From positions 1,376,001-1,440,000 of the forward strand of contig CAVWLP010000002.1 in assembly GCA_963755915.1 (NCBI GenBank): 64,000 bases of DNA, in the 5' to 3' direction. Position 1 is the stretch's first letter. Each line of letters begins with the position of its first letter. The position numbers were made by a program, and so were the translations under genes. This document shows positions 30,623 to 64,000 of the stretch, one piece after another. Source of the DNA: an uncultured Phycisphaerales bacterium. GTDB taxonomy: Bacteria; Planctomycetota; Phycisphaerae; Tepidisphaerales; Tepidisphaeraceae. Under the pieces are notes generated by a model. That model was not told the DNA's origin and did no database searches. It saw only the letters and a program-made list of their open reading frames with translations.

Positions 30623-30630
30623 AATTCCCA

Positions 30631-32187: not shown

Positions 32188-32242
32188 TGGACGCTGAAAC
32201 GATACCACACCGTGGCGAAGTATGTCTATTGGATTCAGCGAT

Positions 32243-35280: not shown

Positions 35281-35410
35281 GATTGCCCTTTCATTCCCAA
35301 TTTATCGGACGTGTGAGTCGAGATTCTGCAATGCCAGACCGGTGTTCGGCCGGCGCGCCCGACGGGATTTTCTCTCGATTCCTGAATCATCGTTTCCCAA
35401 TTAGTTCCAA

Positions 35411-43141: not shown

Positions 43142-44875
43142 TCATCCTTTCGAGCCGACGGCGATCTCCTCGTTCTTGGTCAGTCGCAAAACTTCTTCCG
43201 CGGTCGTGCGCCCCTCGCGCACCAGCCGCCAGCCGTCGTCACGCAAACTCGACATCCCCTCTTCCAGCGCCGTCTTGCGGATGTCGCGCGAGCTGGCGCG
43301 ATCCAGGAGCAGCGCGCGAATTTTGTCGCTGACGGGCATCATCTCGAAAACGCCCTGGCGGCCGCGGTATCCGGTCCCCAGGCAGTTCCGGCAGCCGGCG
43401 CCGCGGAAAAGCGTCGCCGGAACCTGATCGCCGTAATCCGCCCGCAGTTTATCCGTGTCGGACTGCGGCACTTCCGTCTTGCACTTGGAGCAGATAAGCC
43501 GGACCAGCCGCTGGGCGGCCACAAGCTCCAGCGTCGACGCCACCAGGTACGGCTCGATGCCCATGTCCACCAGGCGCGTGGTCGCGCCCGGCGCATCGTT
43601 TGTATGCAAGGTGCTGAAAACCAGGTGCCCGGTCAGCGACGCCTGCACCGCGATCTCCGCCGTCTCCCGGTCGCGGATTTCCCCGATCAGCACCACGTCC
43701 GGATCATGACGCAAAATCGAGCGAAGCCCCGATCCGAACGTCAGCCCCGATTTCGCGTTCACCTGGATCTGGTTGATCCCCCGAAGCTGGTACTCAACCG
43801 GGTCTTCGATCGTGATGATCTTCAGATCGACGTTGTTGATCTTTGAAAGCGCCGCGTAAAGCGTCGTCGTTTTGCCCGAGCCGGTCGGGCCGGTCACGAG
43901 CACAATTCCGTGCGGCAAATCCAGCACCTGCTGCCACACCTTCACCTCGCGCTGGCCCATTCCCAGGTGTTCCATTCCCAGCAGCGCGTCGCCGCGGTCC
44001 AGAATTCGCAGCACCACCGCCTCGCCGTGAATCATCGGGATCACGCTGACGCGCAGGTCGATTTCCCGCCCGGCGACCTTGAGCCGGATGCGCCCGTCCT
44101 GCGGCAGCCGCTTTTCCGCAATGTCCAGATGGCTCAGAATCTTGATGCGCGAAACGATCGCCGCGTGATATTTCTTCACCTGCGCGGGGATATTCGCCTC
44201 CTGCAGCACGCCGTCGATGCGATAGCGCACCCGAAGCTGCTGCTCGAACGGCTCCACGTGAACGTCCGTCGCCCGCAGCTCCAGCGCCTCGGCCATCACC
44301 TGATTCACGAACTTGATGATCGAAGCGTCGTGGGCGGCCGTGGAAAGATCGATATCTTCGTCCGAGGTGTCTTCCAGGACGGTGACGTTTTCATCCTCGC
44401 CCATCGACTGAAGCGTGTCCGCGCCGACGCCGAGATATTTCTTGATATACCGGTCGATATCCGCCGCCGGCGCCACGACCGGATGTAGATCGAGGCCGGT
44501 GGCCAGCCGCAGCTCATCGAGCCCGGCGTTATCGAAGATGCGCGAGGTGAGGATATGAATCCCCTCGCCGTTTCCGTTTTCCCCGTTGCCGTTCTCCCCC
44601 AGCGGCATAAGCTGCCGATCGAGCAGAATCCGCGCCGGGAATTTCGAAAGAAATTCGCGCAACGGCGCCAGCTTCGCCCCATCCTTTTCAAGGTCGATGT
44701 AGGGCACGTCGTAGTAGTCCGCGAGGAATCGAAGGATCTTGTCCTCCGGCACCCCGTTGACGGCCCGCAGCGCATCGTCAAGCGGCTTGCCCGCGGCGGT
44801 GGCATCGCTCACCTGCTGTGCCTTCTCGGCATCCAGCACGCCTTCGGAAACCATCTTGGACAGAACGTTTTTCAC
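43142..44875 (-). CDS. gspE: T2SS ATPase
   Basis: TGPTGSGKTTTLY, EDPVEY, DPDVVLIGEIRD, TLHTND, CxxC pairs. Confidence 0.93.
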   Translation of the reverse strand: MKNVLSKMVSEGVLDAEKAQQVSDATAAGKPLDDALRAVNGVPEDKILRFLADYYDVPYIDLEKDGAKLAPLREFLSKFPARILLDRQLMPLGENGNGENGNGEGIHILTSRIFDNAGLDELRLATGLDLHPVVAPAADIDRYIKKYLGVGADTLQSMGEDENVTVLEDTSDEDIDLSTAAHDASIIKFVNQVMAEALELRATDVHVEPFEQQLRVRYRIDGVLQEANIPAQVKKYHAAIVSRIKILSHLDIAEKRLPQDGRIRLKVAGREIDLRVSVIPMIHGEAVVLRILDRGDALLGMEHLGMGQREVKVWQQVLDLPHGIVLVTGPTGSGKTTTLYAALSKINNVDLKIITIEDPVEYQLRGINQIQVNAKSGLTFGSGLRSILRHDPDVVLIGEIRDRETAEIAVQASLTGHLVFSTLHTNDAPGATTRLVDMGIEPYLVASTLELVAAQRLVRLICSKCKTEVPQSDTDKLRADYGDQVPATLFRGAGCRNCLGTGYRGRQGVFEMMPVSDKIRALLLDRASSRDIRKTALEEGMSSLRDDGWRLVREGRTTAEEVLRLTKNEEIAVGSKG

Positions 44876-44981
44876 TTCAAAATCCTTCGTCCCGAAAATC
44901 CTTCGCTCCGGTGAGCAGGGGCCTGCCAGCAGTTTCCGGCAGGCCCCTCAATTCACCGTTTCAAACCCTTTGTCGCGTACC

Positions 44982-46780: not shown

Positions 46781-47344
46781 TCAGGGCAAATACGATTTCA
46801 ATTTCTCTTTCAATTCGGCCCGGGCCCTGTGCAGTCGGGATTCAACCGTTCCGCGCGGGACATCGAGCACATCGGCGATCTCTTCATACGTCATCCTCTC
46901 AAACTCTCGCAGCAAAAGGACCTGCTGATGGTCCGCCGAAAGCTGCCGGATGGCGGCCCGAACATCGATCGCCGACTCGGCGCCGCCCGATGGGGCAGCC
47001 ACGGTATCCGGCATCGTCTCGGCCGATCGTCGCGAACGATCTCTTCGCCAGCGGGCCGCCTGGTTCACCAGAATCCGGGTGAGCCAGGTCTTCACCGACG
47101 CGCGGCCCTCAAACGATTTGAGGCCGCGGAACGCGCCGACGAACGTCTCCTGGAGCACGTCCTCGGCGTCGGTGGCGTTGCCGATCAGACTGACGGCCAG
47201 CCGAAACAGGCGCTGGGCGTGGCGATCGACCAGAGCATGGAATGCCGCTGAATCGCCGTCCTCGGCGCGTCGCAAGAGTTTGATGTCATCCGCCTCCGGG
47301 CTAATGTCTGCCACCTGCGGCGTCTCCCTCGAAGGCTTACCCAT
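46781..47344 (-). CDS. ECF RNA polymerase sigma factor
   Basis: DAEDVLQETF, TWLTRI, YEEIA...GTVESRLHRAR. Confidence 0.93.
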   Translation of the reverse strand: MGKPSRETPQVADISPEADDIKLLRRAEDGDSAAFHALVDRHAQRLFRLAVSLIGNATDAEDVLQETFVGAFRGLKSFEGRASVKTWLTRILVNQAARWRRDRSRRSAETMPDTVAAPSGGAESAIDVRAAIRQLSADHQQVLLLREFERMTYEEIADVLDVPRGTVESRLHRARAELKEKLKSYLP

Positions 47345-47761
47345 TGCCGACGGTCAGAATGAAATTCACGCATTCCGAATGCATAGTTCCGGGTAGAATC
47401 GGAATTCTTCCATGGGGAGCGGGATTTTCTGCGAGCCGAAATGTTTTTGGCGCGAACAATACATTACAAAACTTTACAGTCCGCGACAATATGGGTTGTG
47501 TGGGTAGACTGGGCAGTATTTATGGTTATTGGACGTTTTCGTAGAGCCTGCTCCGAAATTCGAAACTCGATGTTCGAAAGGGGGAAGCATGGGGCATTGG
47601 CTCCGTCTAAAAAATAACGGCGAGATATCATTCCATGTCCATGGTTATGGACAATCATCGGCGATCGTGGTTGCCTGAGCAGTCGCTTTACATTCCGATT
47701 CCGCGCGGCCCGTTCTACCTCCTGAGCGTCGCGATCGGATTGGCCGTTACGGTGGCATTTC

Positions 47762-49812: not shown

Positions 49813-52313
49813 TCAGGGCAGTGAGATCCGATCGATCACCACGCCCGGATCGACCGCGCTGATTTTCAACGTGTGTTTGCCGGGACTCAGGCCCATGAGC
49901 GGGATTTGCAGGAGCGACTCGTTGTCCTGGACGGTGTTTCTGCGTACCGGGCCATTCTCGTCTTCGGCGCCGGCGGAGCCGGGGACTTCCATCGTTTGCG
50001 GAGGTTGCGTGTCAATGGTTATCGCGACGCGGAGCTTTGTTCCGGGGTAGATGCGGAAAGTGGGGAGGAAGGCGATCTGGGCTTGCAGGTTGGATTCATT
50101 TGTGATTTGGAAACCACACACCAATGCCGGAGCAGCGGTGTCGGAGCTGGCGAAAGGGGTTTGGAGATTTGATGGTTCAAGTGCGACTGCGCGGCCGGAT
50201 TGGCCCAGGCCTTCGATGACTTGCCAGCTGACTTTCGAGGGACCAGAAATAGAAAGCGCGTCGGCGGCATCGCGCCAGGGCAGGGATCGCGGTGGTGGTG
50301 AAGGGTGAGATGGCGTTGGCGGTTCGCCCCACGGCCAGCGGACCTGACTTGACCATTTGGTCAGGTCTTTGTTGGTTTCCAGGCCGGGCATCATAAAGTG
50401 CCATTTACCGCCGGCGAGCTGGGTGTTGTAGTTTTCGACCTGCGATTCGAGATCAGTGCGAAGGACATTAATTGCGGATTGGAAAGGTTCCGGGCCGTTG
50501 CCGTACTGGATCTGGCGATCGGCCATGAAGATTAAACCGGTCTCGGCGAGCACCTGTGCGGGGAAGCCGATGGTTTCGGTATACGCGTCGCGCTGGGCAG
50601 GGGAGATTGAGGCGGCGAGATTCTTCTCGAGGGTGAGGAGGGCCATGTAGTCATGTTCGAGTTTCATGACTTCGTAATTGGGGAGCGAAAGGGCCCAGGC
50701 GCGGTTCATCAGCTCGGGTTTGCGGATGGTGCCGAGGCGATAAAAGTCCATGAGAAGATCGGCGATGGGCTGGGCGGAATTTTCACCGAAGGTTTTGGCG
50801 GCGAAATCTTTGAGGAAGATGGGCTGCGAGTCGGGGCCGAGATTTTGCGGGCTCCAGGCCAGGGCCGCGTAGTAGCTGATGCCGATCTCGGCTGGCTTGA
50901 TGTCGCCGACGTTGACGACCCACAGATTTCCCGCGCCATTTTCCCACGCTTTGTGCAACTCTTCCCACATCAAGGCGGGGGCTGTGGTGTTGATCCAGGT
51001 GTAGGAGTGGGGGGAGCCGTAGTAGGAGATGTGATAGTAGACGCCTGCGCCGCCGGGGCGGGTCCGCTCTTGGGGCGTGCTGAGCCGGCGGATATAGCCG
51101 AAGTTGTCATCCGCCCAGACGAGCGTGACGTCGGGCGGGACCTGGAGGCCCGCGTCATAGATCGGCTGCACTTCTTTATAGGGCACGAAGCACTGGGCGA
51201 CGGGGCCGAATTGTTTGGAGGCATATTCGTCGAGCAATTGCCGTTGGTCGGCGATGACCTGGGTGACGGTTTTGACTCGCGTGGAGATATTTTTGGGGCC
51301 TTCCATCGGAGCATCGTGGATGCCGCGGATGCCCAGGGTCCAGACGGCTTCGTAGGGCCCGCGCGCTTGGGCGGCAGTTTCCCAATAGGTGTGGATGGCG
51401 TCGCGATTTTTGGTGTAGTCCCATGGGCCCTGCGTTTTTTCCTTCCAATGTACGTTGTTGCAGAGCATCGGCTCACAATGCGATGAGCCGGCGACGATCC
51501 CGTAATCGTCGGCGAGCTGAAAGTTTTCGGGGATCGAGCCGAACTCAGTCGTGCACCCGTGCATGGCGGGCCAGATGTAATTGAGGCGCAGGCGAAGGAG
51601 AAGCTCAAAGACTTTCGCGTAGGTTTTGGGGCCGATGTTTCCGAGGGTGGGGTCGAAGGTTTTGCTGGCCCAGGGGTTGATGCCCCAGTCTTCGTCGTTG
51701 ATGAAGATGCCGCGGTATTTGACGGTGGGTGCGTCGGTGTACGGGGTGGGGAGGGAGAGGTAGAGGGCGGATTTTGAGCCGGGGCGACGTCGGCCCACCA
51801 GTACCACGGCGAGACGCCGATGGCCTGGGAGAGGGTGAAGACGCCGAAGGCCGTGCCGCGGCGGTCGCTGCCGGCGATGACCAGGGCGGAGGGGATGTTG
51901 GGGGCGGGGTTGGGAATCACGGCGATGGTGAAGGCTTCCCATTTGTTTTTGATTTTTGAGACGTCGAGTTTGTTGGATCGCGCGAGGGAGTCGATAACAG
52001 AGTTATTGCCCAGGGTGCCGATGAGGATTTCGGGGGATTCCGCCGGTGAGGACACGGCTCGACTGAGCTCGCCGAAGTCCGGCGGCACTTGTGACACGAT
52101 CGGCTTGCGGCCGGTGACGCGCTGAATGTCCTCCGAGAATAAGTTGGCGGCGATCTGGACGACTTTGGCGTCGTGGGGGTCGGTACGGATGGTGGCGAGT
52201 TGGGAGGGGGTGACGAGGGGGAAGGACGTGGGGGATTCGGAAATTGATAGGTCGGCGGCGCGGGCGAGTGTTGCAATGAGGAGAAGAAGGGCGGGAAGGA
52301 GAGTGCGAATCAT
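49813..52313 (-). CDS. glycoside hydrolase family 115 (alpha-glucuronidase-like), frameshift ~51775
   Basis: GSDRRGTAFG, GVSPWYWWAD, KYRGIFINDE, WPAMH, SHCEPM, DDNFGY, NVGDIKP. Confidence 0.9.
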
Positions 52314-52388
52314 GGAGTTTCCGTTGGTTGAACGAGCGCTGGAGTTTAACCGGAAGTGAATTTTTGGTCTGCGCGGAGTGATGTCAGG

Positions 52389-52429
52389 CCCTCACCCCTG
52401 CCCTCTCCCAGAGTACTGGGAGAGGGAGG
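52389..52429. repeat. REP-like element
   Basis: CCCTCACCCCTGCCCTCTCCCAGAGTACTGGGAGAGGG hairpin overlapping the GT stop. Confidence 0.75.
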
Positions 52430-53495
52430 AATTCGCCGCGAAAAGACGGCGATATTGGTTGAGCGTTTTTTGGGAGGAGTAGATGTTTTCGACGGTGTCG
52501 CGGGCGGCGGTGGCGATGGCATTGAATTTGTCCCACGGCGTCATCGTAAGTTCTTCTAGGCGCTGGGCGAGATGGGTCGGGTCATTGGGCCGGAATTTGA
52601 AGCCATTCATATTGTCCTGCACGATGGCGCCAGGCCCGGCGGAATCGGGCACCAAAACGGCGAGATTGGCGGCCATCGCCTCAAGGATTACCAGGCCGAA
52701 GGGTTCTTCAGGGCAGGTGTGGAGGAAAAGGTCGGCGTGGGTCATGTGATTGGGGATGTCGGAACTGTAGCCGGCGAATTGGACGTTGGGATGAGCGGTT
52801 GCGGCGCGGGCCTTGAGGGCGTCGAACTCGCCGCCGGTGCCGTAGATCGTGAAGGTGATTTCGCGGAGCTTCGGCGAGCCGCGGTCGAGGGCGTCAAGGA
52901 CCAGGCCGACGCGTTTCATGGGGTCGATCCGGCAGACGATAATTACGTTGCGAATTCCCAGCACGCCATACGGCGGCCGCTTCGGGGCGGCGGCGATGCG
53001 CTCGGCGGGTAGGGCGTTGGGGATGACTTCGATCAGGTCGGCGCGGGTGCCAAAGTCGATCAATTTTTGTTTGGTCCAATCGGAGACGGCGATGAATTTA
53101 ACGCCGGTGTGGTTGAGCCATTTTTTTCGGCCGTAAGAGTGCAGGTCGCTCGAGCCGCCGTGGACGATCTGGAAATGGTTGATTCGCCGGCGGTAGAGGA
53201 GGTTGAGGGCAAGGCAAACGCCGGAATGCATCACGCCGGTGGCAACGAAGACCATCGAATCATATTTTTTCAGCATCGGCCGGAGTGATTTGGCGAATGC
53301 TTTGGCGCCGCGAAATCGGCACGCTTCGAAGCTGAGCTTTTCGGCTTCATCCATCGCCGGGCCGGGAGGACCGAAGAGGATCGGTTCGAATTCGTCCTTG
53401 AGGCCTACGGAAGTGTCGAGGGCGACGCGCTCGGTGCCGTGAAGCTTGCTGCTGTGCAGGATGTAGAGAAGGGGTGTGCGTGCGGTAGGGGGCAT
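52392..53495 (-). CDS. glycosyltransferase family 4 (paralog 4)
   Basis: LHSSKLHGTER; EPFGLVILEAM (EX7E). Confidence 0.9.
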   Translation of the reverse strand: MPPTARTPLLYILHSSKLHGTERVALDTSVGLKDEFEPILFGPPGPAMDEAEKLSFEACRFRGAKAFAKSLRPMLKKYDSMVFVATGVMHSGVCLALNLLYRRRINHFQIVHGGSSDLHSYGRKKWLNHTGVKFIAVSDWTKQKLIDFGTRADLIEVIPNALPAERIAAAPKRPPYGVLGIRNVIIVCRIDPMKRVGLVLDALDRGSPKLREITFTIYGTGGEFDALKARAATAHPNVQFAGYSSDIPNHMTHADLFLHTCPEEPFGLVILEAMAANLAVLVPDSAGPGAIVQDNMNGFKFRPNDPTHLAQRLEELTMTPWDKFNAIATAARDTVENIYSSQKTLNQYRRLFAANSSLSQYSGRGQG

Positions 53496-53519
53496 CGAAT
53501 GAAAGGCAGATGATAACGA

Positions 53520-54681
53520 TCAATCAGGCGTGAACAATCGGCGGTATTGATTGATCGAGACTTCGCCGGAGAATCGCTCGTCGCACGACTGCCGCGCGGC
53601 CAGGGCAATGCGATTGAGGAGGCTGGCGGGAGCGTTTTTCAGTTCAATCAGCCGCTGGGCAAGATGGGCCGCATCATTGGCGTGAAAGGTGAAACCGGTT
53701 TGATTTTCGGTGACGAGGGTGGCGGTGCCGCCCTGGTCGGGGACGAGGCAAACGAGGTTGAGCTCCATCGCTTCGAGGACGGCCAGGCCGAAGGCTTCGA
53801 CCGGGCACGTGTGCAGCAGCAGGTCGGATTTGGATAAGTGCGCCGAAACATTGTCGACATAGCCCGCGAAATGGACGTTGGGATGGGTCTGGGCGGCGCG
53901 GTCGCGGAGGCGGTCCAGGTCGGGGCCCCAGCCGTAAACGGTGAAATCCAGATCATTCAGCTCGGGGCCGCGGAGATCCAGGGCATCCAGCAGAAGATCG
54001 ACGCGCTTGGGCGGATCGACGCGGGAGACTATGGCTACCGATCGGACGCCGTCGCCGTCATAGCGCGGGCGACGGATCATGGCGTCGAGCTGCGCGGGTC
54101 AGGAAATTGCCCACCACGGCGATCCGATCCGGGCGCACGCCGTGGTGGATCATTCGGTCCCTCGCATACTCGGAGACAGTGATGAAGGTCGTGTCGAAAT
54201 TGTTGAATCGGTGCAGGGTGGCGAGGTCTTTCTGCTCGTTGCCGCCGCCGTGGATCATCTGGATGTTTTGGACCCGCCGGCGATAGAAGACGTTGATCGC
54301 GATGCAGATGGCCGAATAGCGCGGCAGGGTGGAGACGAAAGTGAACGATTCAAATTGCCGCAGGAGCTGGATCAGTAGCTTGATGAGCTGGGGAATCGTT
54401 TGAAATGAGCGGGTTTCGAATCCGAGTTGCCGGGCGGCGTCCAAGGCGGGGCCGCTGGGGCCGATGAAGATGAAATCGAAATCCTTTGCGAGTCCCACGG
54501 CCGTCGCCAAAGCCATGCGCTCGGTGCCATACATTTCACTGCTGTGCAGGGCGTAGACGAGAGTGGGGCGGAGCCGGAGGGATTCTCGCGCCGCATCAGA
54601 CCGGGGCGTAGAGCTTGCGATATCGCCGGAGTGCGGCGTCGGCAGAGTAGTCGGATTGGACCTTAGCAACTGCATTGGCAA
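53520..54681 (-). CDS. glycosyltransferase family 4 (paralog 3), frameshift ~54085
   Basis: LHSSEMYGTER; EAFGLAVLEAM. Confidence 0.85.
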
Positions 54682-55660
54682 CCATTCGATTCAGCAGCTC
54701 GGCCGGCGCGTCTTTCAGTTCGACGAGTCGTCGGGCGAGGTCGGCGGCGTCGTCTGCCCGGTACGTGAAGCCGCTGACACCATCCTGCACGAGCGTGGCG
54801 GTGCCGCCCTTGTCCGGGACCAGCGTCGCCAGGTTCGCACCCATCGCTTCCAGAACGGCCAGCCCGAAAGTCTCGTACGCGCAGGTGTGTACGAGCAGAT
54901 CGGCCTTGGCCATTTCACCGGCGACGTCGTTTGTGAAGCCGGCGAACGTGACGTTTGGATGGGTGCGAGAAGCCCGCTCCTTTAACTTTTCAAACTCGGG
55001 ACCGACACCGAATATCCGGAACGACGTGTCGGACAATTCCCGCTGCCGGATATCGAGTGCATCGAGCAGCAGGTCCACCCGCTTTAGATGATCGATACGT
55101 GAAACCAGGATGAAATTTCGCGTACCGTTGGAAGTATACCCGCGCCGGCGCGGCGTGTGCAGAATCTGATCGGGCGTCAGGAAGTCGCCAACGACTTCGA
55201 CGCTATTCGTAACTCGATTATCTATAAGCTTTTGCTTTGACCATTCGGAGACGACGACGAAGGTAATATTCCAAAAATTGAGGACCTTTTTCCGGGCGTA
55301 GTCCTTGTCAATTCCAGACCCTCCGTGCAAAAGCTGAATTTGCCGAATATTGCGTCGAAAAAAGACGTTCAGAGCGATGCAGACTAGGTTGTAGCGAGGG
55401 CCGGTGCCGACGAAAGTGAGGGAGGGATAGTGGCGGAGCAGCGGAATCAGCACCTTAGCCAGGTCGATGCTGCTGCGATACTCGCGGGTCTGGAAGCCAA
55501 GCCGCCGGGCTTCCTCCAGCGCCGGCCCCGGTGGTCCGATAAAAATCGTTTCGAATTCGTCGTTCAATCCCAGCGCCGTGGCCAGCGCCATCCGCTCGGT
55601 CCCATAAAGATTGCTGCTGTGGAGGACGAGGAGGATGGGATGGCGGGGGGCCGTTGCCAT
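54596..55660 (-). CDS. glycosyltransferase family 4 (paralog 2)
   Basis: LHSSNLYGTER; ETFGLAVLEAM. Confidence 0.9.
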   Translation of the reverse strand: MATAPRHPILLVLHSSNLYGTERMALATALGLNDEFETIFIGPPGPALEEARRLGFQTREYRSSIDLAKVLIPLLRHYPSLTFVGTGPRYNLVCIALNVFFRRNIRQIQLLHGGSGIDKDYARKKVLNFWNITFVVVSEWSKQKLIDNRVTNSVEVVGDFLTPDQILHTPRRRGYTSNGTRNFILVSRIDHLKRVDLLLDALDIRQRELSDTSFRIFGVGPEFEKLKERASRTHPNVTFAGFTNDVAGEMAKADLLVHTCAYETFGLAVLEAMGANLATLVPDKGGTATLVQDGVSGFTYRADDAADLARRLVELKDAPAELLNRMVANAVAKVQSDYSADAALRRYRKLYAPV

Positions 55661-55662
55661 AT

Positions 55663-56742
55663 CTATGGAGAGTCTATCGGCGCAAAGGCCTTGCGATACT
55701 CTTCCAGAGATGTTGCGGCGGAAAGGGTGGTCTCCAGTGTCCCCGCAGCGGCGTCGACGACGCGGTTGAGCACTGCCGGGTCGGCAGAACGAAGCTCGAT
55801 CAATTTTTTCGCCAGGTCGGCGGCGTCTCCGGCGCGGTATTTGAATCCGGTGACCCCCTCCTCGATGAACGATGCCGGCCCCCCCTGGTCCGGAACCAGC
55901 ACGGGAATGTGGGCGGCCATCGCTTCGATGACAACCAGGCCAAAGGCCTCCGTCGGGCAGGTATGCACCAGCAGGTCCGACTGGGCAAATCGCTCCTGAA
56001 GGTCATGCGTGAATCCCAGCACGTTGATGTGGGGATTCCTGGTTTGCGCCCGGTGGCAAAGAGCTTCGAGCGCAGGTCCGTCCCCGACAATATCGATGGG
56101 AAAATCGCGCAGCTCGGGGGCCCCTTCGGCTGCGTCGAAAAGAAGATCGAACCGTTTGACCGGAACCAGCCGGCCGGCCGAAATCGCCTTGGTCACGCCG
56201 CCGGTAAAAAGCCCCCGCCGCGGCCGGGCCGCGATTTCCGCCGGCAGCAGAAAATTCGCCGCCACCTCCACCCGGTCGGCCCGAAACCCATGCTCGATCA
56301 GCCGCTGTTTCACATACTGCGACACCGCCACGATGCGCACGTCCAACGGATTCAGATAGCGGATCCCGCCGAAGTCCTTTTCCTCCTGGCAGCTTCCATG
56401 CAACACGTACACGTGGCGGATTTGCCGGCGGTACATCACGTTCAGCGCCTTGCACATGATTGTGTAGCGCGGCAGCGTCGAGGCGACCGTCAGCGACGAA
56501 TACGTCTGCAGCAGAAGCCGCAGCGCCTGGAGCAGCGCCTTGGTGGTCTGGAAGTAATGCGTTTCATATCCCTGCCGCTCGGCTTCCCACATTGCCGGCC
56601 CGCGCGGACCCAGGAAAATCGTTTTGAATTCGGGGGGAAGCCCCGCCGCCGTGGCGAGGGCCATGCGCTCGGTGCCGTACATTTCGCTGCTGTGCAATAT
56701 GTACAAAACGGGGTGAGGCTGATTCACCGATGGGTTGTACAA
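55663..56742 (-). CDS. glycosyltransferase family 4 (paralog 1)
   Basis: LHSSEMYGTER; EAFGLVVIEAM. Confidence 0.9.
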   Translation of the reverse strand: MYNPSVNQPHPVLYILHSSEMYGTERMALATAAGLPPEFKTIFLGPRGPAMWEAERQGYETHYFQTTKALLQALRLLLQTYSSLTVASTLPRYTIMCKALNVMYRRQIRHVYVLHGSCQEEKDFGGIRYLNPLDVRIVAVSQYVKQRLIEHGFRADRVEVAANFLLPAEIAARPRRGLFTGGVTKAISAGRLVPVKRFDLLFDAAEGAPELRDFPIDIVGDGPALEALCHRAQTRNPHINVLGFTHDLQERFAQSDLLVHTCPTEAFGLVVIEAMAAHIPVLVPDQGGPASFIEEGVTGFKYRAGDAADLAKKLIELRSADPAVLNRVVDAAAGTLETTLSAATSLEEYRKAFAPIDSP

Positions 56743-56896
56743 ATTTTCAACCTCTTGTATTCATTTGTGGTCGTCAATTGTTTCGCGTCTCCATTCTCGT
56801 GCGGGCGGAGTTATACGGGGGCGGAGAGACGATACAAGCGCGAAAACAACGATACTTCAAAAATAAAAATGGTGAATGAAGCGTAGATGAAACCGT

Positions 56897-58830
56897 TCAG
56901 AATGGGAGCGACTGATCCATCCAGTCGTCATTCCGGAGCACTTGCTTCCGGTTGAACCTCGCCAGCCGCTCCGCGCGGGCCTGCGCGATGGCGATCAGCC
57001 GGGCCGCGTCGATGGCGCGCCAACTGTTTCGAAGTCTTGGGACATGGCGGACGAACACATCGTCCTGCGCAGGCGAACATCTGGCGCACCCGGGGTCTCC
57101 CTGCCGGGCCGCGCGCCGAAAAGCTGCCGATCGACGCGCCCGGAGCCGTGCGGCTCGGTTGCAATCACATGAAGCCCGCCAAGTTCCGCCACCCCTCGGC
57201 CAAGCTTAATGTCGGTCCCGCGGCCCGCCATGTTGGTGGCCACGGTGATTTTCCCCTGCTGCCCCGCCTCCATCACAATCGACGCCTCCTGCGCCGTTTG
57301 CGTTGCGTTAAGAACCCGATGCAGCTTCCCCTTGTCCGCGAATCGCCGGCTCAGCTCCTCCGACGCGATCACGCTGCGCGTTCCCACCAGCACCGGAGCG
57401 CCGGTTTCGTTGATCTCGCACACCCGCTCCACCACCGCGTCGTATTTCTGCTCCAGCGTGTCGAACATCCGCAAAGGCAGATGCTTGCGAATGCACGGCT
57501 TGTTGGTGGGGATGCGCACCATCGGCCGGCGGTAAATCTGCCACGTCTCGTTGCGGGCCTCCCATGCCGTGCCGGTCATGCCCGCCATGATGGGATATTG
57601 CCGGAAAAATCGCTGAAAGCTCAGGCGGGCGAGGTTTTCCTTGTCGGCGGTCACCGGAACGGTCTCCTTCACCTCGATCGCCTGGTGCAGCCCGTGACGC
57701 CAGGAACGGTCCGCCAGCACGCGGCCGGTGAACTCGTCGATGATCTGAACCTTATGGTCAGCCGTTACAAGATAATGCTCCCCCCGCGTGAAGCAGTGAT
57801 GCGCCGAAAGGGCCTGCACGACAAGCTCCTCGCGGCGCCGTTTCCCCTGCCAGAAGCCGTCGTCCCCTTCGCAGAGAACGTCAAGCTGCTCCTCGCCGCG
57901 CGGGGTGAGATCGACCTGGCGAAGCGTCCAGTCGATCTTGAAATCCCGCCCCGCTTTAAGCTGGATCGCCAGCGAGTCGGCACGCTCGTAAAGCGAGGCG
58001 TTGCCCTCTTCTTCCGGCGCGTTTGAAATAATCAACGGCGTAACCCCTTCGTCGATCAGCAGGCTGTCCGCTTCGTCCACGATCACCTTCCAAAGCCCCG
58101 GCACCATCAGCGGGCTTCGCTGGCTGCCCGCCATCAACATCCCCACCACGGTTTGCGTCGAGGAACGCAGATTCCCCAATGCGATCTGATCGCGAAGAAA
58201 ATCCGCGACCAGCTCCTTGCTGGTAACGTAAACGACATTACGGCGATAGTGATCGTAACGCTCGCTGGGGTTGGTCTCATGAATGACATGCCCGACCGTC
58301 AATCCCAGCATCCGGTAAACCGGCCCCATTTCCTCCGCGTCGCGGCCGACGAGATAGTCGTTCACCGTGATGATGTGCACAGGCTTCCCGTGCCAGGCCC
58401 ACACGGCCGCGGCCAGGGACGCGGTCAGGGTTTTGCCCTCACCCGTCGCCATTTCGGCGATGAGGCCTTCCATCATCGCCAGCGCGCCGGCGAGCTGCAC
58501 CGGAAACGGCCGCAAGCCGATCGCCCGCAGCGCCGCTTCCCGCGCGACCGCCATCGCCCGGTCCAGCGCCTCCCCCTGAAGTTGCCCAAGCCTGGCCAGA
58601 TCACGGGCCGCGGAAACTTCATCGCCAAATTTCTGCGCCCCCAGGTTGTGAATCTCCGGCTCAAGCTTTTCGATGCGATTGGCCTGCTCCATCAGTCGCG
58701 CCAGAACCCGGCGCTTGTTAACCGCCCATCCCACGATTCCGCTGAAGAACTGATCGAGCCCGCGAAGTTCGGGGTGCTTCACCCGTCGGGCGTCGAATAT
58801 GGACCAGAGATCATCGGAGGCGACAGACAT
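56897..58830 (-). CDS. secondary, C-terminally short SecA-like ATPase (frameshift ~57110)
   Basis: EMATGEGKT, VNDYL..RD, IVDEADSLLIDE, GMTGT, TNMAGRGTDIKL; the corrected tail ARQGDPG...DWMDQSLPF* ends at 56897. Confidence 0.88.
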
Positions 58831-58843
58831 GATATCTAAGCGA

Positions 58844-61057
58844 TTAGAGCCACTTTCCCGTGTCGTGTGCCTGGAAGAGCTGGAGGAATTTGTTCCGCCA
58901 CTGCCAGAAGAGCGTCTCGCGGTCGAGCGTCAGCCGGACGTACGCCCTCTGGCCGGGCAGGATTTGCTGATCTTGATTGTCGAGCTTCACCCACGCTTCG
59001 AAGGTCGGCATCTGGGTGCGCACGCCGTTGGGATCGTGCGGATCGACCTGGATATCCTCACCCCCCGTGGAACCCAGCGAGGGGTGAACCAGTTCGGTGA
59101 CGGCGGCAGGGGGGAGCGTGAGCGCGCCGCCGGAGATCGTCTGATCGAGCATCCCCGCCAGCCGCACTTCAACCTTCACGCGGTCGAAGGGAACGGGCCG
59201 GATCAATTCAAAATCCTTCTGATCGATATCCCCCTTGATGACCAGCTTATCGAGCACCGCCACCCGGCCGATCTCCTGCCCGCGCTGGACAAAGGTGTTC
59301 GGCAATTCATGAAGGTTTGGCGCGATCAGCCGGCCCGCGAACGGGGCCGTGATCGTCAGGTCCGCGCTTCGCCGCTGATCGTCTTTGAACTTGGTGGCCC
59401 ACGCCTTCAGGTCGTCCGTGTCCTTGATATATTCGATCTGGTCCTCGACGCTGTCCTGACGCATCTTGATGGTGATCTCACGGATCATCGCATCGTCGGT
59501 GGCCAGGTCTTTCTTCACGTCGAGGTCTTCAAGCTTGAGGATAACGTCGCCGGCGTTTATCGCCTGTCCGTCCTCCGCCAGGACAGCGACAACGTGCCCG
59601 GAGGCGGCCGCCCGCAAATCGCCGCTCTGTGCGACGCCTTGCGAATTCACCGGATCATCCGGCTGCACCATCCCCGCAAATTCAACGTGAACCGGCAACC
59701 GAAGCTGGAAAATCAGCAGCGCCACGATGGCCGCCACCGCCACGCTAAAGCCAATCGCCCGCTTGCGCTTGCGATGCAGCTCCGGATCCAGGGCAAGGTA
59801 TTTCACGAGCTGGAACAGCGGGACGCATCCCCAGGTGACGATGCCGCCGATCGCCATCAGCACGCCCACCACCGGCACCTTGTCGAACACCACAACCACG
59901 ATCATGATGCCGATGAAGACGCGATAAATGCTGCTCGCGATGGAGTAGGTCAACAGCCAGATCCGCTGCCCAAAAGGCGGTAGCGGCTGCGAAAGCTTCA
60001 TCCGGAAAATATGCCGCTTGATCAGGCCCAGGGCGTATTCCGTGCTCTTCTGGCGCAGGTTGGGGATTTCCAGAAGGTCAGACAAAATGTAGTAGCCGTC
60101 GTAGCGCAGCAGGGGGTTGGCGTTGAAGATAACCGTCGAAACGCTGGCGACGAACATCGCGTTATACGCAAGCTGCTTGACGAGCGGATACGCCGCCGCG
60201 TTCGTTCCCGCCCAGACAAATGCGAACAGTGACGCCACGAACAGTTCGACGATCATCCCCGCGGCGCCGACGAATACGCGCTCCCATTTGCTCGGGAACG
60301 ACCAGGCCGTCGACGCATCGACAAACGGCGTGGGCACCAGAACCAGCAGCATCAGCCCCAGCTCATGCACCTCTCCGCCAAATCGCCGGCACGCGAACGC
60401 GTGACCCAATTCGTGGATCAGCTTGATGACGACGAACGTGCCATAAAGAAGAAACAGGTTTTCAAAATTGTGCTGAAAATCGAGGGCCGAGCCGGCTTCG
60501 GCCTTGAGCTGGTCCCACTGCGGCAGGACCGTCATCAGGGCCAGCCCGACAACGATCAGCCAGATGATGGCTCCGACCCTGCCGAAGATCATGCGGGCCA
60601 GGGGCATCCACCGGCACAGGAAATTGTCCGGGTCCCACAGCCGGATGCGCGGGAACAGCACGTTCATCAGCCGGTTCTGCATCTTCTGCTGCACCAGCTT
60701 CTTATGCCGCCGCAAAAGCACCATCGCATCGGGCGTGATGTTGGTTTCCAGCAGATTGGCCGCGTAGAGCTGGCTGAGAACGTGGATCACTTCCGGCTGC
60801 GTCGGCGCGTCGTCGGCAAGCTGACCGCCAACCAGGTCCCACGCCTGCTGCACGCTCTTTCGCCCGTCAAGCAGGCCGACGAACCGATACGCGGCGTCGC
60901 TGAGCCGGTGGAACTGGTTCCCCGCCGGATCGCGCACGACATACCACCGGTCGCCGCGATAATACTGGCGCGAAACCTGCGCCCCGGCCCGAAGCCGCGG
61001 TTTAAGGTCCGCGACGCGGTACCATGATTCCGAAAATGTGGGTCTGAGCTGAAGCAT
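58844..61057 (-). CDS. PqqD/RRE-like + M50 site-2 protease + HlyD-type adaptor fusion
   Basis: WYVVRDP..FHRL...LLDG; HELGH; NANPLLRYDG; lipoyl/coiled-coil ITAPFAG. Confidence 0.85.
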   Translation of the reverse strand: MLQLRPTFSESWYRVADLKPRLRAGAQVSRQYYRGDRWYVVRDPAGNQFHRLSDAAYRFVGLLDGRKSVQQAWDLVGGQLADDAPTQPEVIHVLSQLYAANLLETNITPDAMVLLRRHKKLVQQKMQNRLMNVLFPRIRLWDPDNFLCRWMPLARMIFGRVGAIIWLIVVGLALMTVLPQWDQLKAEAGSALDFQHNFENLFLLYGTFVVIKLIHELGHAFACRRFGGEVHELGLMLLVLVPTPFVDASTAWSFPSKWERVFVGAAGMIVELFVASLFAFVWAGTNAAAYPLVKQLAYNAMFVASVSTVIFNANPLLRYDGYYILSDLLEIPNLRQKSTEYALGLIKRHIFRMKLSQPLPPFGQRIWLLTYSIASSIYRVFIGIMIVVVVFDKVPVVGVLMAIGGIVTWGCVPLFQLVKYLALDPELHRKRKRAIGFSVAVAAIVALLIFQLRLPVHVEFAGMVQPDDPVNSQGVAQSGDLRAAASGHVVAVLAEDGQAINAGDVILKLEDLDVKKDLATDDAMIREITIKMRQDSVEDQIEYIKDTDDLKAWATKFKDDQRRSADLTITAPFAGRLIAPNLHELPNTFVQRGQEIGRVAVLDKLVIKGDIDQKDFELIRPVPFDRVKVEVRLAGMLDQTISGGALTLPPAAVTELVHPSLGSTGGEDIQVDPHDPNGVRTQMPTFEAWVKLDNQDQQILPGQRAYVRLTLDRETLFWQWRNKFLQLFQAHDTGKWL

Positions 61058-61087
61058 CTAAAATTGCCCCGCGACCTGATCGCGAAA

Positions 61088-63006
61088 TTACATCCAAAGC
61101 TTGAACTGCAGATACTCGACAAACTTGTGCGTCCAGATCCACAGCAGGGAACGATGCGCGATATCGACGTGCGCGTACCCCGCCATGCCGGGGTTCCACG
61201 TCGGCGAGGACTGCTTCATCGTCCCATAGACCGTGAACTTGTTGTCCCCGTCCTTGGTTTCCCCCAGCGGGACAACACGGTCGATGATGAAACCATATTT
61301 TTCCGTCGGCAGTGCGGTGGTGGCCAGCTCGCCGGGCTGGCCGGGTTTCAGATATTGTGCGTCCCCTTCGCTGACCGTGATCTTGGCGCGAAGCCCGGTG
61401 TCGGCGGCGATGGTGAAGAGGTCGTCCCCCTCCTTCTTCATCGCGTTGCGCTGATCGACGAGATCGCCCGACAGAATCACCCCGTTAAACGGCGCCCGGA
61501 CCGTCCCGCGGTCGATCTTCTCCTGGTCTTCCTGCGCCTCGGCGTTTGCCCTTTCGATTTCCTGTTCGGCCGCGTCGGCCTCCGACTGCTTGCCCTGGGC
61601 GGTGTAGCTCATCCATTCGGCTTTGGCCTTGCGCATGTCGTCTTCATGGGCGTTGAGATCGAGCTGGAGGTCGAACGTCTTCATCGTCAGCAGCACCTGC
61701 CCCTTGGTGACGTAATCGCCCGGCAGAACCTTAACGTCGTCGATCTGCCCGTCGAAGGGAACCTGAAGTTTTCGCTTATCGACCGCGTCAAATTCGAACG
61801 GCGCGATCACGTGATACATCGGGCGATAAACGCTGATGAAAAGCAGCAGCAGCACGCCGAGCACCACCAGCACCTTCGCCAGCGTGTGCTGCGGGCCGAC
61901 GACTTTCTTGCCAAGCTCCTCCAGGCTCAGGCCGGCTTTGGTGATGAGCCAGCGGTCGTTCTGATAGCGGTCAAAAAGCTGCGGAGCCAAAAGATCCACG
62001 GCCACCGACAGCCCGGTCGAGGCCTGCTGCGAAAGCTTGTGCGTCGAGGGGAATTCCAGCGTCACCGCGCCGACGACATCCGCCCGCCGGCGAAGCGGCA
62101 GCGTCAGTACGACGTTTCCGCCTTCAGCGCGGGACAGATCCTGCGCCGCCCGGCTCACATTCTGCGTCCCGCCACCCTGTGGCTCAAAATGCACCGGCTC
62201 TTCCTGGTCGATGCATTCTTCCATCGCTTTTTCCAGCGTCTTGACCAGCTCCTGCCGCTTGTCGAATTGCTCGGTGTGCGAAAGAGCCTTCACTTCCACG
62301 TCCTGACTCTTCTTCATCCACCCCAGCGCCACCCGCGTCGCCCCGGTGCGGGTGGCCAATTCATTGCACAGATTCATCGCCGCCGACTGGAACCCCTCAG
62401 CCGTGGCGACCGCCGTCGCGAGCTGCAACACGTGCTGGTGCGACTGCGCCACGATCTGCGACTGCTCGTTCTGCCGGCGAAGCGTGAACAGATCGAAATA
62501 TCCGGCAACAAGGTTCATCGACATCAGCCGCTGCTGGGCGCGCCTCAAATCCAGCAGCTCGCGTGATGACCGCCGTAACCGCCACCACCTGCGCCGGCAC
62601 GCTCCGCAGCGTCGTGATCAGGCAAAACAGCGGCTCGATTCCCGTGCCCCCTTCCCCCGTATTCAACTCGATAATCGCCCCTTCTTTCCCCTGGCTCAGC
62701 GTCTGCTTGATCAGCCGCTGAAACTCCGCCGCCGCCGCGGCTCGCTTCTCGGGGGGGCTGTTGTCGGTGCGAATGTGCTCGATCAGCTTCAGCGTCGGCT
62801 CTTTGGGGTCCTGCGAGGGCTCGACCAGAAATGCCGCGGCCTCAGTCGCCGGCCACCATCACCATCTGCGCCTTGAGAATCCCCTTGATGAACTCCGGCA
62901 GACTGTCGCCCGCCATCAGCAGGTGCTGAACCAGGCCCGAAAGGGAAGACCCCTGCGCCTGCAACGACTTTTCCGAGCCTTGTGATTCAACAATTCCTTG
63001 TGCCAC
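61088..63006 (-). CDS. GAF-domain + HlyD-family membrane-fusion protein (frameshifts in the 5' part)
   Basis: GAF-like AMEECIDQE, LTLPL; TM; VPFDGQI..VLPGDYV; RAPFNGVILSGDL; PGMAG. Confidence 0.8.
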
Positions 63007-63156
63007 ACGTCACCTGCAAGGGTCTGAACATTTCAGATCAATTCGGCCCCAAGGCTCCCGATTCATCGAGAATTTGGAAGTCCGATATCCAGCAAAAGAC
63101 AAATTTATTTCCGGCCAGCAATAGTCCCGCTACCTGTCAAAATCTCCCAGCAGAGC

Positions 63157-63999
63157 TCACTGTGCCGACGGAAAACGGACCTGCACCCACAAACCCGACG
63201 GAGTATTGTTGGGATTGGACAATTCCAGCCGCACCGTCTGTTTGTCGCTGCCGGCATCAACCTCTGGATCAAGGAAGATCACTTTCGCATCGAGCCATGT
63301 ACCTTGTTCAGTTTGATACTCCACCTGTGCCGGATCGCCAATTTTCAGCTTCAGCGATTCCGATGATGGGACCTTTATCTCAACCCATAGCGGGTCGTTG
63401 GTCACGATCGTGAGCGCACCGTCCGGTTTATTGGGATCGACGACTTCCCCCTCCTGAATGCTAATCTGCTGTACGATTCCATCGACCGGGCTGAAAAGCT
63501 GCATCTTGTCGACGGTGCGTGCCTGCACGTCGACGTCCGCCAAGGACTTTTCCCGGTCCGCCAGCGACTTGCGGAGCAGCGCCTCCCGCTCCTCATAATC
63601 GAGCTTGGCTTCATCGACTTCCGATTGGCTTACCGCCTGCTCGGCGAACCCCTTTTCCTTGTTTTCGTATTCGATCTTCCGCGCATCCCGGTCGGCGGTC
63701 GCAGCCTCGACCGCCGCGGTGGAATTCGCCTGAATTTGCAGCGACCGCAGCTTCAGCGTCTCAAGGTCGGTATCTTCCTTCCCCAGAAGCTCGCCCTTCT
63801 TCACCACGTCGTCGGGCTTTACGAACCACTTGCGAACGATCCCGATCTCCATGAACGATGGCTTGGCCGTGTGCGATGGAATCGTCCGGGCGATCAGCAT
63901 CTCATCCGGCGGATTGGCGGCGTCCGCCCCCGCAAACGGCAGCAACCCGAACATCGCCAGCGCCAAAACGCTCCGCCCTAGCCATTTTCTGGAAATCAT
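63157..63999 (-). CDS. efflux RND/HlyD periplasmic adaptor
   Basis: Signal peptide; VKPDDVVKKGELL; SPVDGIV; DPEVDAGS; PSGL. Confidence 0.88.
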   Translation of the reverse strand: MISRKWLGRSVLALAMFGLLPFAGADAANPPDEMLIARTIPSHTAKPSFMEIGIVRKWFVKPDDVVKKGELLGKEDTDLETLKLRSLQIQANSTAAVEAATADRDARKIEYENKEKGFAEQAVSQSEVDEAKLDYEEREALLRKSLADREKSLADVDVQARTVDKMQLFSPVDGIVQQISIQEGEVVDPNKPDGALTIVTNDPLWVEIKVPSSESLKLKIGDPAQVEYQTEQGTWLDAKVIFLDPEVDAGSDKQTVRLELSNPNNTPSGLWVQVRFPSAQ

Positions 64000-64000
64000 G

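Follow-up and report, generated by a model that had tools for sequence, protein, structure and literature searches.

A putative SecA-driven, ABC-free export module with an appended glycosyltransferase array in a Tepidisphaeraceae genome, and its association with LEPR-XLL-tagged giant proteins

Results

Gene content of the locus

The DNA analysed here, called the window throughout, is a stretch of 64,000 nucleotides from an uncultured Phycisphaerales bacterium of the family Tepidisphaeraceae (assembly GCA_963755915.1, contig CAVWLP010000002.1, positions 1,376,001 to 1,440,000; G000:C2:1376001-1440000 in our numbering, where G000 is this genome). All window coordinates count from its position 1. 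Between 52392 and 63999, it contains eight minus-strand genes running in one direction: three HlyD-type membrane fusion proteins (MFPs), one of them fused to a GAF domain and another to an M50 protease and a domain resembling the recognition element (RRE) of peptides made by ribosomes and modified after translation (RiPPs), a SecA-like ATPase, and four paralogous family 4 glycosyltransferases (GT4s). Genes were called from a listing of open reading frames (ORFs), and every ORF of the locus was scanned with Pfam and NCBIfam profiles. A first-pass annotation, made from the letters alone, had described the same co-directional run, devoid of any ATP-binding cassette (ABC) ATPase or resistance-nodulation-division (RND) pump: ORFs and profile scans confirm the run, and no such ATPase or pump was found by the scans of the locus.

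The first gene, MFP1 (63157..63999, minus strand), is complete, its start codon lying at the window edge (63999), and encodes a secreted periplasmic adaptor of the HlyD type, 280 aa long. It matches Pfam HlyD_D23 (E 2.8e-18) and HlyD_3 (E 3e-17), exceeds the cut-off of the NCBIfam model RND_mfp (102.4 bits, cut-off 94.9), and has an N-terminus resembling a signal peptide. GAF-MFP (61088..63006, minus strand) has a GTG start at 63006 and encodes about 638 aa, once two 1-nt insertions are removed. Its product is composed of a cytoplasmic N-terminal part of about 200 aa without a Pfam family, a GAF domain, one transmembrane helix and a periplasmic HlyD-type adaptor (HlyD_3, E 4e-16); the GAF domain scores 19.2 bits in the window, below the Pfam cut-off of 22.4, and 26.7 bits in the intact ortholog from locus L084.

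The third gene (58844..61057, minus strand), intact, encodes a 737-aa fusion, indicated as RRE-M50-MFP: a cytoplasmic RRE/PqqD-like domain is followed by an M50 intramembrane zinc protease of the site-2-protease (S2P) type and by a periplasmic adaptor. The RRE-like domain, a PqqD-like winged helix predicted to recognise leaders, occupies 60743..61030 (minus strand; residues ~10-105), and the zinc-binding HExxH motif of the protease, HELGH, 60401..60415 (minus strand; residues 215-219). Scores are 32.8 bits for Pfam Peptidase_M50, 35 bits for HlyD_3, and 19.7 bits (E 0.0011) for PqqD, the last one below the cut-off of 23.4. More than 7300 homologs of the fusion are found at E<=1e-10; in 16 that were aligned, both M50 motifs, HExxH and NxxPxxxxDG, are invariant (H215, E216, H219; N312, P315, D320, G321). 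The C-terminal third has the MexA/AcrA adaptor fold (E 1.6e-12), and matches the MacA fold too.

The SecA-like gene (56897..58830, minus strand) encodes about 645 aa, after restoration of four missing bases, featuring two nucleotide-binding domains (NBD1, NBD2), the preprotein cross-linking domain (PPXD) and a scaffold-helix stub. Pfam matches are strong (SecA_DEAD, E 1.9e-88; SecA_PP_bind, E 1.7e-25; P-loop_SecA, E 8.4e-39), and the score is below all SecA and SecA2 equivalog cut-offs of NCBIfam. In the intact L084 ortholog, SecA_DEAD, PPXD and P-loop domains are recognised, with no Pfam match for wing or scaffold. The intact ortholog aligns to residues 20-579 only of Bacillus subtilis SecA: motor and preprotein clamp are therefore kept, while the wing domain, the two-helix finger and the C-terminal tail are absent. 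A canonical SecA is also encoded by the genome (G000:C2:2913784-2915266), the SecA-like ATPase being thus its second SecA_DEAD protein.

The run is closed by four GT4 paralogs, all on the minus strand: GT4a (55663..56742), a cytoplasmic glycosyltransferase of the GT-B type (Glycos_transf_1, E 2.1e-27); GT4b (54596..55660; E 6.8e-27); GT4c (53520..54681), whose two halves match Glyco_transf_4 (N-terminal) and Glycos_transf_1 (C-terminal), split by a 2-nt deletion of the assembly at 54091; and GT4d (52392..53495; Glycos_transf_1, E 3.4e-26), the final gene. A GH115 gene lies about 450 nt beyond GT4d. Promoter and terminator scans of 52000-64000 gave results at chance level (3 promoter-like sites versus a mean of 2.7; 9 terminator-like sites versus 12.3).

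Intactness of the genes

In the window sequence, indels interrupt three of the eight genes, namely GAF-MFP, GT4c and the SecA-like gene. Two 1-nt insertions, at 62556 and 62846, place the N-terminal 150 residues of GAF-MFP in two other frames; GC is missing at 57066, G at 57082 and C at 57115 in the SecA-like gene, and GC at 54091 in GT4c. Taken at face value, these breaks are what a decaying pseudogene cluster would look like. They were checked against contigs of four public short-read runs, aligned over 53900-63200, which restore the frame at every break. Contigs from runs X1, X4 and X17 supply GC at 54091 and GC, G and C at 57066, 57082 and 57115; the extra base is absent at 62556 in X1, X4 and X17, and at 62846 in X2, X4 and X17. 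When compared with L003, the tail of the SecA-like gene shows 1+1+2 deleted bases, and the matching bases are supplied by the run contigs. Run X1 has no other differences from the window over 548, 497 and 1463 nt, and its sample may be the same one; X4 and X17 belong to other studies and to diverged strains, and they agree at the break sites.

The relatives, in turn, feature unbroken ORFs of about 635 aa for GAF-MFP (612-688 aa from stop to stop) and about 645 aa for the SecA-like gene, and the genes of the locus are, outside the breaks, 74-87% identical to intact orthologs. The canonical SecA of this assembly (3 contigs, estimated completeness 81%), although essential, is likewise split over three frames; DnaG, RpoD and GspD/E/F of the window are unbroken. 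Because the run contigs restore every frame and relatives have continuous ORFs, the three frameshifted genes are intact in the organism and their breaks are assembly errors; the pseudogene reading was rejected on these grounds, and its residual probability is negligible.

Indels of the assembly, relative to the short-read contigs, were noted at 54091, 57066, 57082, 57115, 61074, 62556 and 62846, all those inspected lying in G/C-rich contexts. At 57010-57320, the summed contig depth rises about tenfold in X4 (81.7) and X17 (71.1), with many short contigs fitting in part and showing apparent skips; the rise is best explained by recruitment of conserved SecA ATPase motifs from other organisms. 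In long-read assemblies of this kind, no gene should be declared dead for a frameshift until the reads have been consulted, and a check at the read level is needed for gene calls throughout this genome.

Identity and distribution of the module

Judging from their domains, the first four genes are the secondary SecA_DEAD module, related to type I secretion systems (T1SS), described by Kamneva, Poudel and Ward in 2015 (PMC4452313). There the module is composed of a SecA_DEAD protein devoid of wing and scaffold, Peptidase_M50/HlyD, GAF/HlyD and HlyD proteins, with no ABC transporter and sometimes an outer membrane efflux protein (OEP); it is reported for Planctomycetes, Verrucomicrobia and Proteobacteria, and the available text of the paper leaves substrate and function open. 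The window holds the corresponding set: a second SecA_DEAD protein without wing and scaffold, adjacent M50/HlyD, GAF/HlyD and HlyD/Biotin_lipoyl genes, and no ABC transporter. That secondary SecA genes beside T1SS-like adaptors were already known, from bioinformatics, in bacteria of the Planctomycetes-Verrucomicrobia-Chlamydiae group had been pointed out in the first-pass annotation, and is traced here to that paper.

Comparison loci amount to 103, 80 from species-representative genomes and 23 from metagenomes. The order MFP1, GAF-MFP, M50-MFP, SecA-like is shared by loci of Tepidisphaeraceae, Verrucomicrobiota, Burkholderiales and Omnitrophota, MFP1 being 5' of GAF-MFP in most related loci. 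The SecA-like gene directly follows M50-MFP in 68 of the 80 genome loci, and 7 of the other 12 end at a contig edge. Of the 141 family genomes, 130 carry it, and for the 72 of high quality the count is 71: the module is thus a near-universal, single-copy core locus of Tepidisphaeraceae, rather than a patchy accessory. An OEP/TolC gene is present inside the module in 8 of the 103 loci (L035, L055, L057, L058, L060, L067, L070, L077). No ABC transporter recurs in the gene clusters of the 103 loci; a single ABC_tran ORF was met, 2.9 kb downstream, in L012 only.

Additional genes are seen in some lineages. A small DUF3467 gene is located between MFP1 and GAF-MFP in 17 loci outside Tepidisphaeraceae (e.g. 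L034:1455-1835); the copy of this genome is on another contig (G000:C3:959946-960236, corresponding to L108:1495-1815), beside a reverse-transcriptase-like ORF. Its product may be a chaperone or an adaptor of the system. In the Burkholderiales locus L076, a SapC (PF07277) gene (9718-10518) starts 4 nt after the SecA-like gene. SapC and the in-module OEP are lineage-specific accessories; a sapC/tolC pair, matching them, adjoins the giant genes of Chl. chlorochromatii according to the portion available of a recent preprint (bioRxiv 10.64898/2026.03.19.712371).

A second family of M50-adaptor fusions, matching more weakly and lacking the N-terminal RRE region, was observed in 12 Burkholderiales and 31 Verrucomicrobiota genomes (e.g. 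G161, G276, G350, G438). Only 1 of these 43 genomes has a LEPR-XLL match, and the family looks like a paralogous system with a different substrate.

Association with LEPR-XLL-tagged proteins

In Planctomycetes and several further phyla, large surface proteins sharing a short conserved N-terminal tag are encoded by the dozen, some of them being among the largest bacterial proteins known. The tag was reportedly put forward as an export signal in 2004. The motif RRLxxExLExRxLLA is given as a novel export signal by Studholme (2004), as quoted in PMC8567305; the same source, in its available text, counts 52 genes with such motifs in Tuwongella, 20 of them detected by proteomics. Here the tag was followed as the N-terminal LEPR-XLL domain, NCBIfam NF012209 (cut-off 17 bits), and the leader is defined as a basic stretch followed by the motif phi-E-x-L-E-x-R-x-L-L-S.

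In other genomes, tagged proteins are neighbours of the module. The one of L082, an RTX-repeat protein of 2620 aa or more, encoded on the same strand, begins 187 nt past the SecA-like gene and scores 27.1 bits with NF012209; in L076, one of at least 1812 aa, by the module, scores 30.7 bits. Large RTX-repeat proteins, encoded on the same strand, follow the SecA-like gene in L094/L104 (at 79 nt) and L078, and lie upstream in L069. The RTX or giant neighbours of L094/L104, L078, L082 and L069 share the N-terminal motif of the leader; NF012209 gives no match at E<=0.01 for L094 or L078. A tagged giant is found within a few kb of the module in many genomes (e.g. G200, G260, G327, G330, G332, G336, G444, G468), with open frames reaching 25,859 aa.

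Module and tag also tend to be present in the same genomes. NF012209 matches were found in all 5 module-bearing genomes from other phyla, and in none of 14 control genomes. Two samples of 201 genomes each were then scored for the tag and for the module, the latter taken as a full-length M50-MFP match, delimited at the natural gap of E-values (E<=1e-120 or 1e-150). Among the Burkholderiales (E<=1e-120), the module is present in 27 genomes and the tag in 24: 22 have both, 5 the module only, 2 the tag only and 172 neither. The corresponding figures for Verrucomicrobiota are 14 with both, 1 with the module only, none with the tag only and 186 with neither. Adjacency in other genomes and co-occurrence in the two samples thus bear out the connection between the module and large proteins with LE.R.LL-type leaders, for which the first-pass annotation had suggested to look. 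No publication linking the module to the LEPR-XLL tag, or assigning a machine to the tag, was found in the literature searched. The preprint on the Chl. chlorochromatii giants (bioRxiv 10.64898/2026.03.19.712371) invokes type I secretion and, in the portion available, mentions a recently acquired secA once, not tied to the module.

In the genome under study, NF012209 has 6 matches over the cut-off. A regular expression for the motif finds 34 sites, 31 of which stand no more than 120 residues from a frame start, with 250 or more residues behind them; the same counts for reversed strings are 4 and 0. At least 31 tagged candidate cargo proteins are therefore encoded, at other loci. A basic stretch precedes each of the motifs, which, with two Glu and one Arg, do not resemble a Sec signal; the candidate proteins are rich in Gly, Ser and Thr.

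The putative leader-binding domain and the probable nature of the substrate

The full-length AlphaFold2 (AF2) model of the fusion has a pLDDT of 73, with only 26-59 over the N-terminal 130 residues; for this reason, the N-terminal domain was refolded alone, on 92 sequences, yielding a model of beta3-alpha3 topology with a pLDDT of 75.9. Foldseek reports no match for it at E<=0.001, the weak rows (6e-3 to 0.1) being led by PqqD and lasso B1. By VIA-align, the model reaches Z 9.4 with the leader-bound lasso-peptide B1 protein (6jx3_B; root-mean-square deviation 3.0, 84 of 85 residues aligned), Z 9.4 with 5v1v_A and Z 8.3 with PqqD (5sxy); the best rows (Z 10.2-10.4) are for the C-terminal domain of the carbamoyltransferase GdmN. 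According to VIA-align, the modelled domain is an RRE-type winged helix, a fold which is not exclusive to RiPP enzymes. A TFSESWYRV motif within it is almost invariant across phyla. The earlier description of a PqqD-like domain fused to an intact M50 protease is thus in agreement with the model and with the invariant protease motifs.

Interaction with a leader was evaluated by complex prediction, where residues 1-460 of the fusion (RRE and M50) were combined, in three runs, with one leader of this genome. The score is 0.45 (0.45, 0.47 and 0.44 in the single runs), versus 0.00 for the best control; the runs share at least 55% of the contacts, and the pLDDT of the partner is at least 41. In a calibration on 157 solved complexes and 215 mismatched pairs, the mark is reached by 116 of the former and 2 of the latter; those which reach it with scores of 0.60 or less are 18 of the 157 and both of the passing mismatches.

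An RRE fold next to a membrane protease also calls to mind the maturation and export of a small ribosomal peptide, a RiPP or a bacteriocin, by analogy with the daptide and YydH/LiaK proteases. The N-terminal 400 aa of the fusion indeed align to the NCBIfam models daptide_HExxH (NF041824; 164.2 bits over profile positions 1-354, E 4.6e-48) and YydH/LiaK (NF058609; 45.6 bits, E 6.9e-12), but both scores are far under the cut-offs of 300 and 225. A search for conserved small ORFs in the 103 loci gave antisense artefacts and DUF3467, and no precursor-like family; no modifying enzymes recur in the loci; the module is single-copy and near-universal in the family, unlike the patchy bacteriocin clusters; and giant tagged proteins, rather than peptides, adjoin it in other genomes. 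A small-peptide substrate is therefore very improbable.

M50/S2P proteases classically serve signalling, and GAF domains are sensors. The module might accordingly be a GAF-regulated signalling device, based on regulated intramembrane proteolysis, or a TolC-linked efflux device for small molecules, where the SecA-like protein would act as a regulatory or unfolding subunit. Expression of only the GAF gene in the exponential phase of Methylobacterium, as reported in the available text of PMC4452313, would suit this possibility. The SecA-like protein, however, retains the preprotein cross-linking domain, the RRE fold suggests peptide binding, and the module co-occurs with, and adjoins, tagged giants: signalling or efflux is the least probable of the functions considered for the module.

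The glycosyltransferase array

The four GT4 genes score 92-96 bits with Glycos_transf_1 (cut-off 26.4), and the N-terminal domain is above its own cut-off in GT4c and GT4d; on these profile matches, they belong to CAZy family GT4 (retaining, GT-B). The paralogs are 46-52% identical to GT4b. Their NCBIfam matches are generic: the best one of GT4a is BshA (72 bits, cut-off 273.7), other matches, such as SdgA, PimA and TarM, are all far below cut-off, and the best solved relative of GT4b is a BshA-type GT4 (2jjm, E 6e-10). No signal peptide or transmembrane segment is present in the GT4 proteins. A fifth paralog, 58% identical to GT4b, is found 80 kb away (G000:C2:1520337-1521383, corresponding to L106:8337-9383). 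An open frame of 1337 aa, without a Pfam match and rich in Gly, Ala, Ser and Thr, lies divergent to this paralog, which also adjoins a class-III aminotransferase gene.

In the first-pass annotation, the GT4s were taken as a part of the export system. In its full form, this reading unites the eight genes in one system for glycoprotein export, a diderm counterpart of the accessory Sec system known from Gram-positive bacteria, where glycosylation by the GT4s is obligatory before export driven by the SecA-like protein. The layout would be suitable: genes are co-directional, GT4a starts 154 nt past the stop codon of the SecA-like gene, with no terminator above chance, and comparable gaps (33-150 nt) are seen in L084, L041, L083, L089 and L091. 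Lack of signal peptides and transmembrane segments would keep the GT4s in the cytoplasm, and the candidate cargo is rich in Gly, Ser and Thr. The array has 2-4 copies where it is present. Besides the genome under study, 16 genomes bear GT4s, and in 13, one of which is the unpublished G062, it lies downstream of the SecA-like gene at no more than 3 kb, across at least three genera; it also stands beside the module in 10 of 23 metagenome loci, and convergent, varied, unrelated genes follow it in relatives.

Distribution, on the other hand, separates the two parts. The GT4 clade (E<=1e-30) is limited to 17 of the 141 family genomes, namely 10 of the 12 other genomes of the genus and members of five other genera, as compared with 130 of 141 for the module, and is absent from 300 other Planctomycetota (E<=1e-50); G123, of the same genus, has the module without the array. 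No GT4 match is found in the 57 of the 80 genome loci that lie outside the family: the module therefore works without GT4s almost everywhere. Of 40 downstream ORFs in other loci, only 3 are glycosyltransferases, of different families (GT2 in L024, GT87 in L040, GT4 in L072), with no trend. Three GT4 loci stand apart from the module (L135-L137), and no LEPR-motif ORF is present in them. Markers of accessory Sec are not found either: the GT4s score 20-29 bits with GtfA (TIGR02918), versus 574.6, the SecA-like protein 432.7 bits with SecA2 (TIGR03714), versus 930, and no SecY2 or Asp is encoded in the locus.

An obligatory glycoprotein system made of all eight genes is accordingly unlikely. The association between GT4s and module is real within a small clade, where common descent can explain it. 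The array is a tandemly expanded, family-restricted clade, which this genus and a few related ones carry at the operon's 3' end, and is extraneous to the general machine. The role of the GT4s may be to glycosylate Ser/Thr-rich cargo while it is still in the cytoplasm, ahead of export, or to make an unrelated glycan. As the clade is restricted and the scores do not reach those of GtfA, the analogy with glycoprotein export is only a lineage-specific possibility.

Surroundings of the locus

Beyond the window edge, a gap of 281 nt separates MFP1 from a Zincin_1 gene, followed by a divergent S49 peptidase gene, a VWA gene, transposases and an amidase gene. The Zincin_1 (PF06262) metallopeptidase, 126 aa (L001:12281-12661, minus strand, i.e. 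282-662 bases past the window end), is co-directional with the module and keeps its position in many Tepidisphaerales loci, where the divergent Peptidase_S49 gene comes next. One conserved ORF of 435 aa, on the minus strand upstream of the module, proved to be the antisense of this Peptidase_S49 gene, and was left out of the later counts. An EmrA-like pair of an MFP and a major facilitator superfamily transporter, about 22 kb beyond the edge, is the only transporter there and is unrelated. In the 36 kb past the edge, no ABC or RND transporter adjoins the module. About 10 OEP genes (20 domain matches) are located elsewhere in the genome, the nearest one about 50 kb before the window.

On the other side of the array, the window encodes the type II secretion system (T2SS) secretin GspD, GspF, GspE and an extracytoplasmic function (ECF) sigma factor (32809-35301, 41858-43024, 43145-44947 and 46784-47353). 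G123 and L091 have these genes after the module as well, showing that the block is syntenic within the genus. At 29505-32242 (minus strand), two overlapping frames, each with a retropepsin-like Asp_protease_2 domain, represent either a tandem pair or another frameshifted gene. The insertion sequences noted (window 9480-11273, 14312-15583 and 19307-21542; L001:14803-15840; L002:7482-10179) are an IS110-type element, two DDE_Tnp_1 elements and two IS21-type copies (rve and IstB), the IS21-type copies flanking the region at about 45 kb.

Discussion

Proposed function of the module

The four-gene module is, in our view, probably an envelope-spanning machine, ABC-less and TolC-dependent, for the export and maturation of proteins with a LEPR-XLL leader, the GT4 array being a separate, lineage-specific addition. 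This reading draws on its domain set, on the loss of the parts of SecA which engage SecY, on the protease motifs, the adaptor fold and the predicted RRE fold, on the occasional TolC inside the module, and on the association with the tag. The cytoplasmic RRE domain would bind the leader, to be cut off by the M50 intramembrane protease; the SecA-like ATPase, with its preprotein clamp and without the two-helix finger that inserts into SecY, would feed the unfolded chain into a putative conduit at the membrane complex of M50 and MFP; the three adaptors would form a periplasmic duct, leading to a TolC encoded elsewhere; the GAF domains might gate or regulate the machine. In comparison with the initial interpretation, leader-guided export of large proteins stands, while the glycosylation step and the location of cargo and TolC next door are not supported: for the latter, a place beyond the window edge had been suggested, but 36 kb of upstream sequence contain neither, and about 10 OEP genes and at least 31 tagged proteins are encoded elsewhere.

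Several observations weigh against this reading. As to the link with the tag, six module-bearing genomes have no tag at E<=0.001, and two Burkholderiales genomes have the tag only, one of the matches being in a 23-aa frame and the other accompanied by a weak M50-MFP match 17 kb away. The co-occurrence counts include relatives, which are not independent, and the threshold for the module was chosen after viewing the E-value gap. If this is relaxed to E<=1e-30, M50-MFP-like matches are present in 39 Burkholderiales genomes, 16 of them without the tag, and in 46 Verrucomicrobiota genomes, 32 of them without it, the matches of these tagless genomes being partial and devoid of the N-terminal region. 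None of the 34 regular expression matches, or of the 6 NF012209 matches, falls in the window, where no cargo gene is present; past its edge, no cargo or TolC gene adjoins the module within 36 kb. As to the machine itself, five loci (L038, L043, L064, L075, L081) have room after M50-MFP and no SecA-like gene there; no DUF3467 gene is located in or beside the window; and the complex prediction gives weak support to the putative binding of RRE and M50 to the leader. As to the array, its fifth paralog stands alone, GT4 genes are on another contig in 3 of the 16 other GT4-bearing genomes, and 113 of the 130 module-bearing family genomes lack the clade altogether. Among these is G123, where ECF sigma and T2SS genes directly follow the module in an otherwise syntenic block, so that array and GH115 represent an insertion or a deletion inside it. 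The co-occurrence of GT4s and module, proposed at first as a check, has a double outcome: adjacency in most genomes with the clade, absence of the clade from most genomes with the module.

On the whole, the module is the best candidate for the LEPR-XLL export machine: it is widespread, and probably exports large surface proteins marked by the short N-terminal tag. If so, it represents a secretion route in which the ABC pump of type I systems is replaced by a SecA-derived motor and a leader-cleaving membrane protease. The window shows the module as a core, intact, single-copy locus of a whole family, and shows that it can stand far from cargo and TolC; the private glycosyltransferase array that one lineage keeps on it is a concrete test case for the glycosylation of exported giants. 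A bolder proposal would go further, and see here a new diderm secretion system, leader-guided, driven by a truncated SecA, ABC-free and TolC-linked, supplying the long-missing route for the planctomycete RRLxxExLExRxLLA/LEPR-XLL signal and joined, in this Tepidisphaeraceae genus, by a recruited GT4 clade, which would glycosylate Ser/Thr-rich cargo in the cytoplasm before export, as the first Gram-negative counterpart of accessory Sec; in this complete form, the proposal is unlikely.

Comparison with known systems

With T1SS for RTX proteins and giant adhesins (HlyB-HlyD-TolC, LapBCE) the module shares HlyD-type adaptors and, probably, a TolC-type duct and large, often RTX-repeat, cargo. Three HlyD_3/HlyD_D23 proteins are present as MFPs, but an ABC energiser is not. 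No outer-membrane factor is found in the window or in the 36 kb upstream; OEP genes lie elsewhere in the genome and, in 8 related loci, inside the module. The proposed coupling of leader cleavage to export is reminiscent of peptidase-containing ABC transporters (PCAT), where the peptidase is a C39 domain and not, as here, an M50 intramembrane metalloprotease. Unlike both T1SS and PCAT, the putative motor is a truncated SecA paralog, with no ABC transporter; the proposed signal is N-terminal (LEPR-XLL) instead of C-terminal, and three different adaptors take the place of one.

The accessory Sec system known from Gram-positive bacteria (SecA2/SecY2, Asp1-3, GtfA/GtfB, serine-rich repeat adhesins) is similar in having a second SecA beside glycosyltransferases of the GT4 family and a likely large surface cargo. 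It differs in several ways: the SecA-like protein has lost the parts engaging SecY and is well under the SecA2 cut-off (TIGR03714); the four GT4s score 19.8-29.4 bits on the GtfA/GtfB model TIGR02918; no SecY2, Asp1-3 or adjacent serine-rich repeat adhesin was found by scanning all the ORFs of the locus; and linkage to GT4s is limited to one small lineage. In RRE-bearing leader peptidases of RiPP systems (daptide, NF041824; YydH/LiaK, NF058609), too, an RRE-like domain at the N-terminus is joined to an M50-type HExxH membrane protease. The fusion described here, in contrast, remains below both cut-offs and carries a periplasmic adaptor, and, in place of precursor peptides and modifying enzymes, absent beside the module, giant proteins are associated with it.

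The closest system is the module of Kamneva et al. (PMC4452313), composed of the same four proteins, with no ABC transporter and with loss of the SecA wing and scaffold. The available text of that paper names no substrate, RRE or glycosyltransferases; here a 3' array of four GT4s is present, and LEPR-XLL proteins are proposed as the cargo. The locus is thus a known, uncharacterised module, extended by a GT4 array, and the link between module and tag was not found in print in the literature searched.

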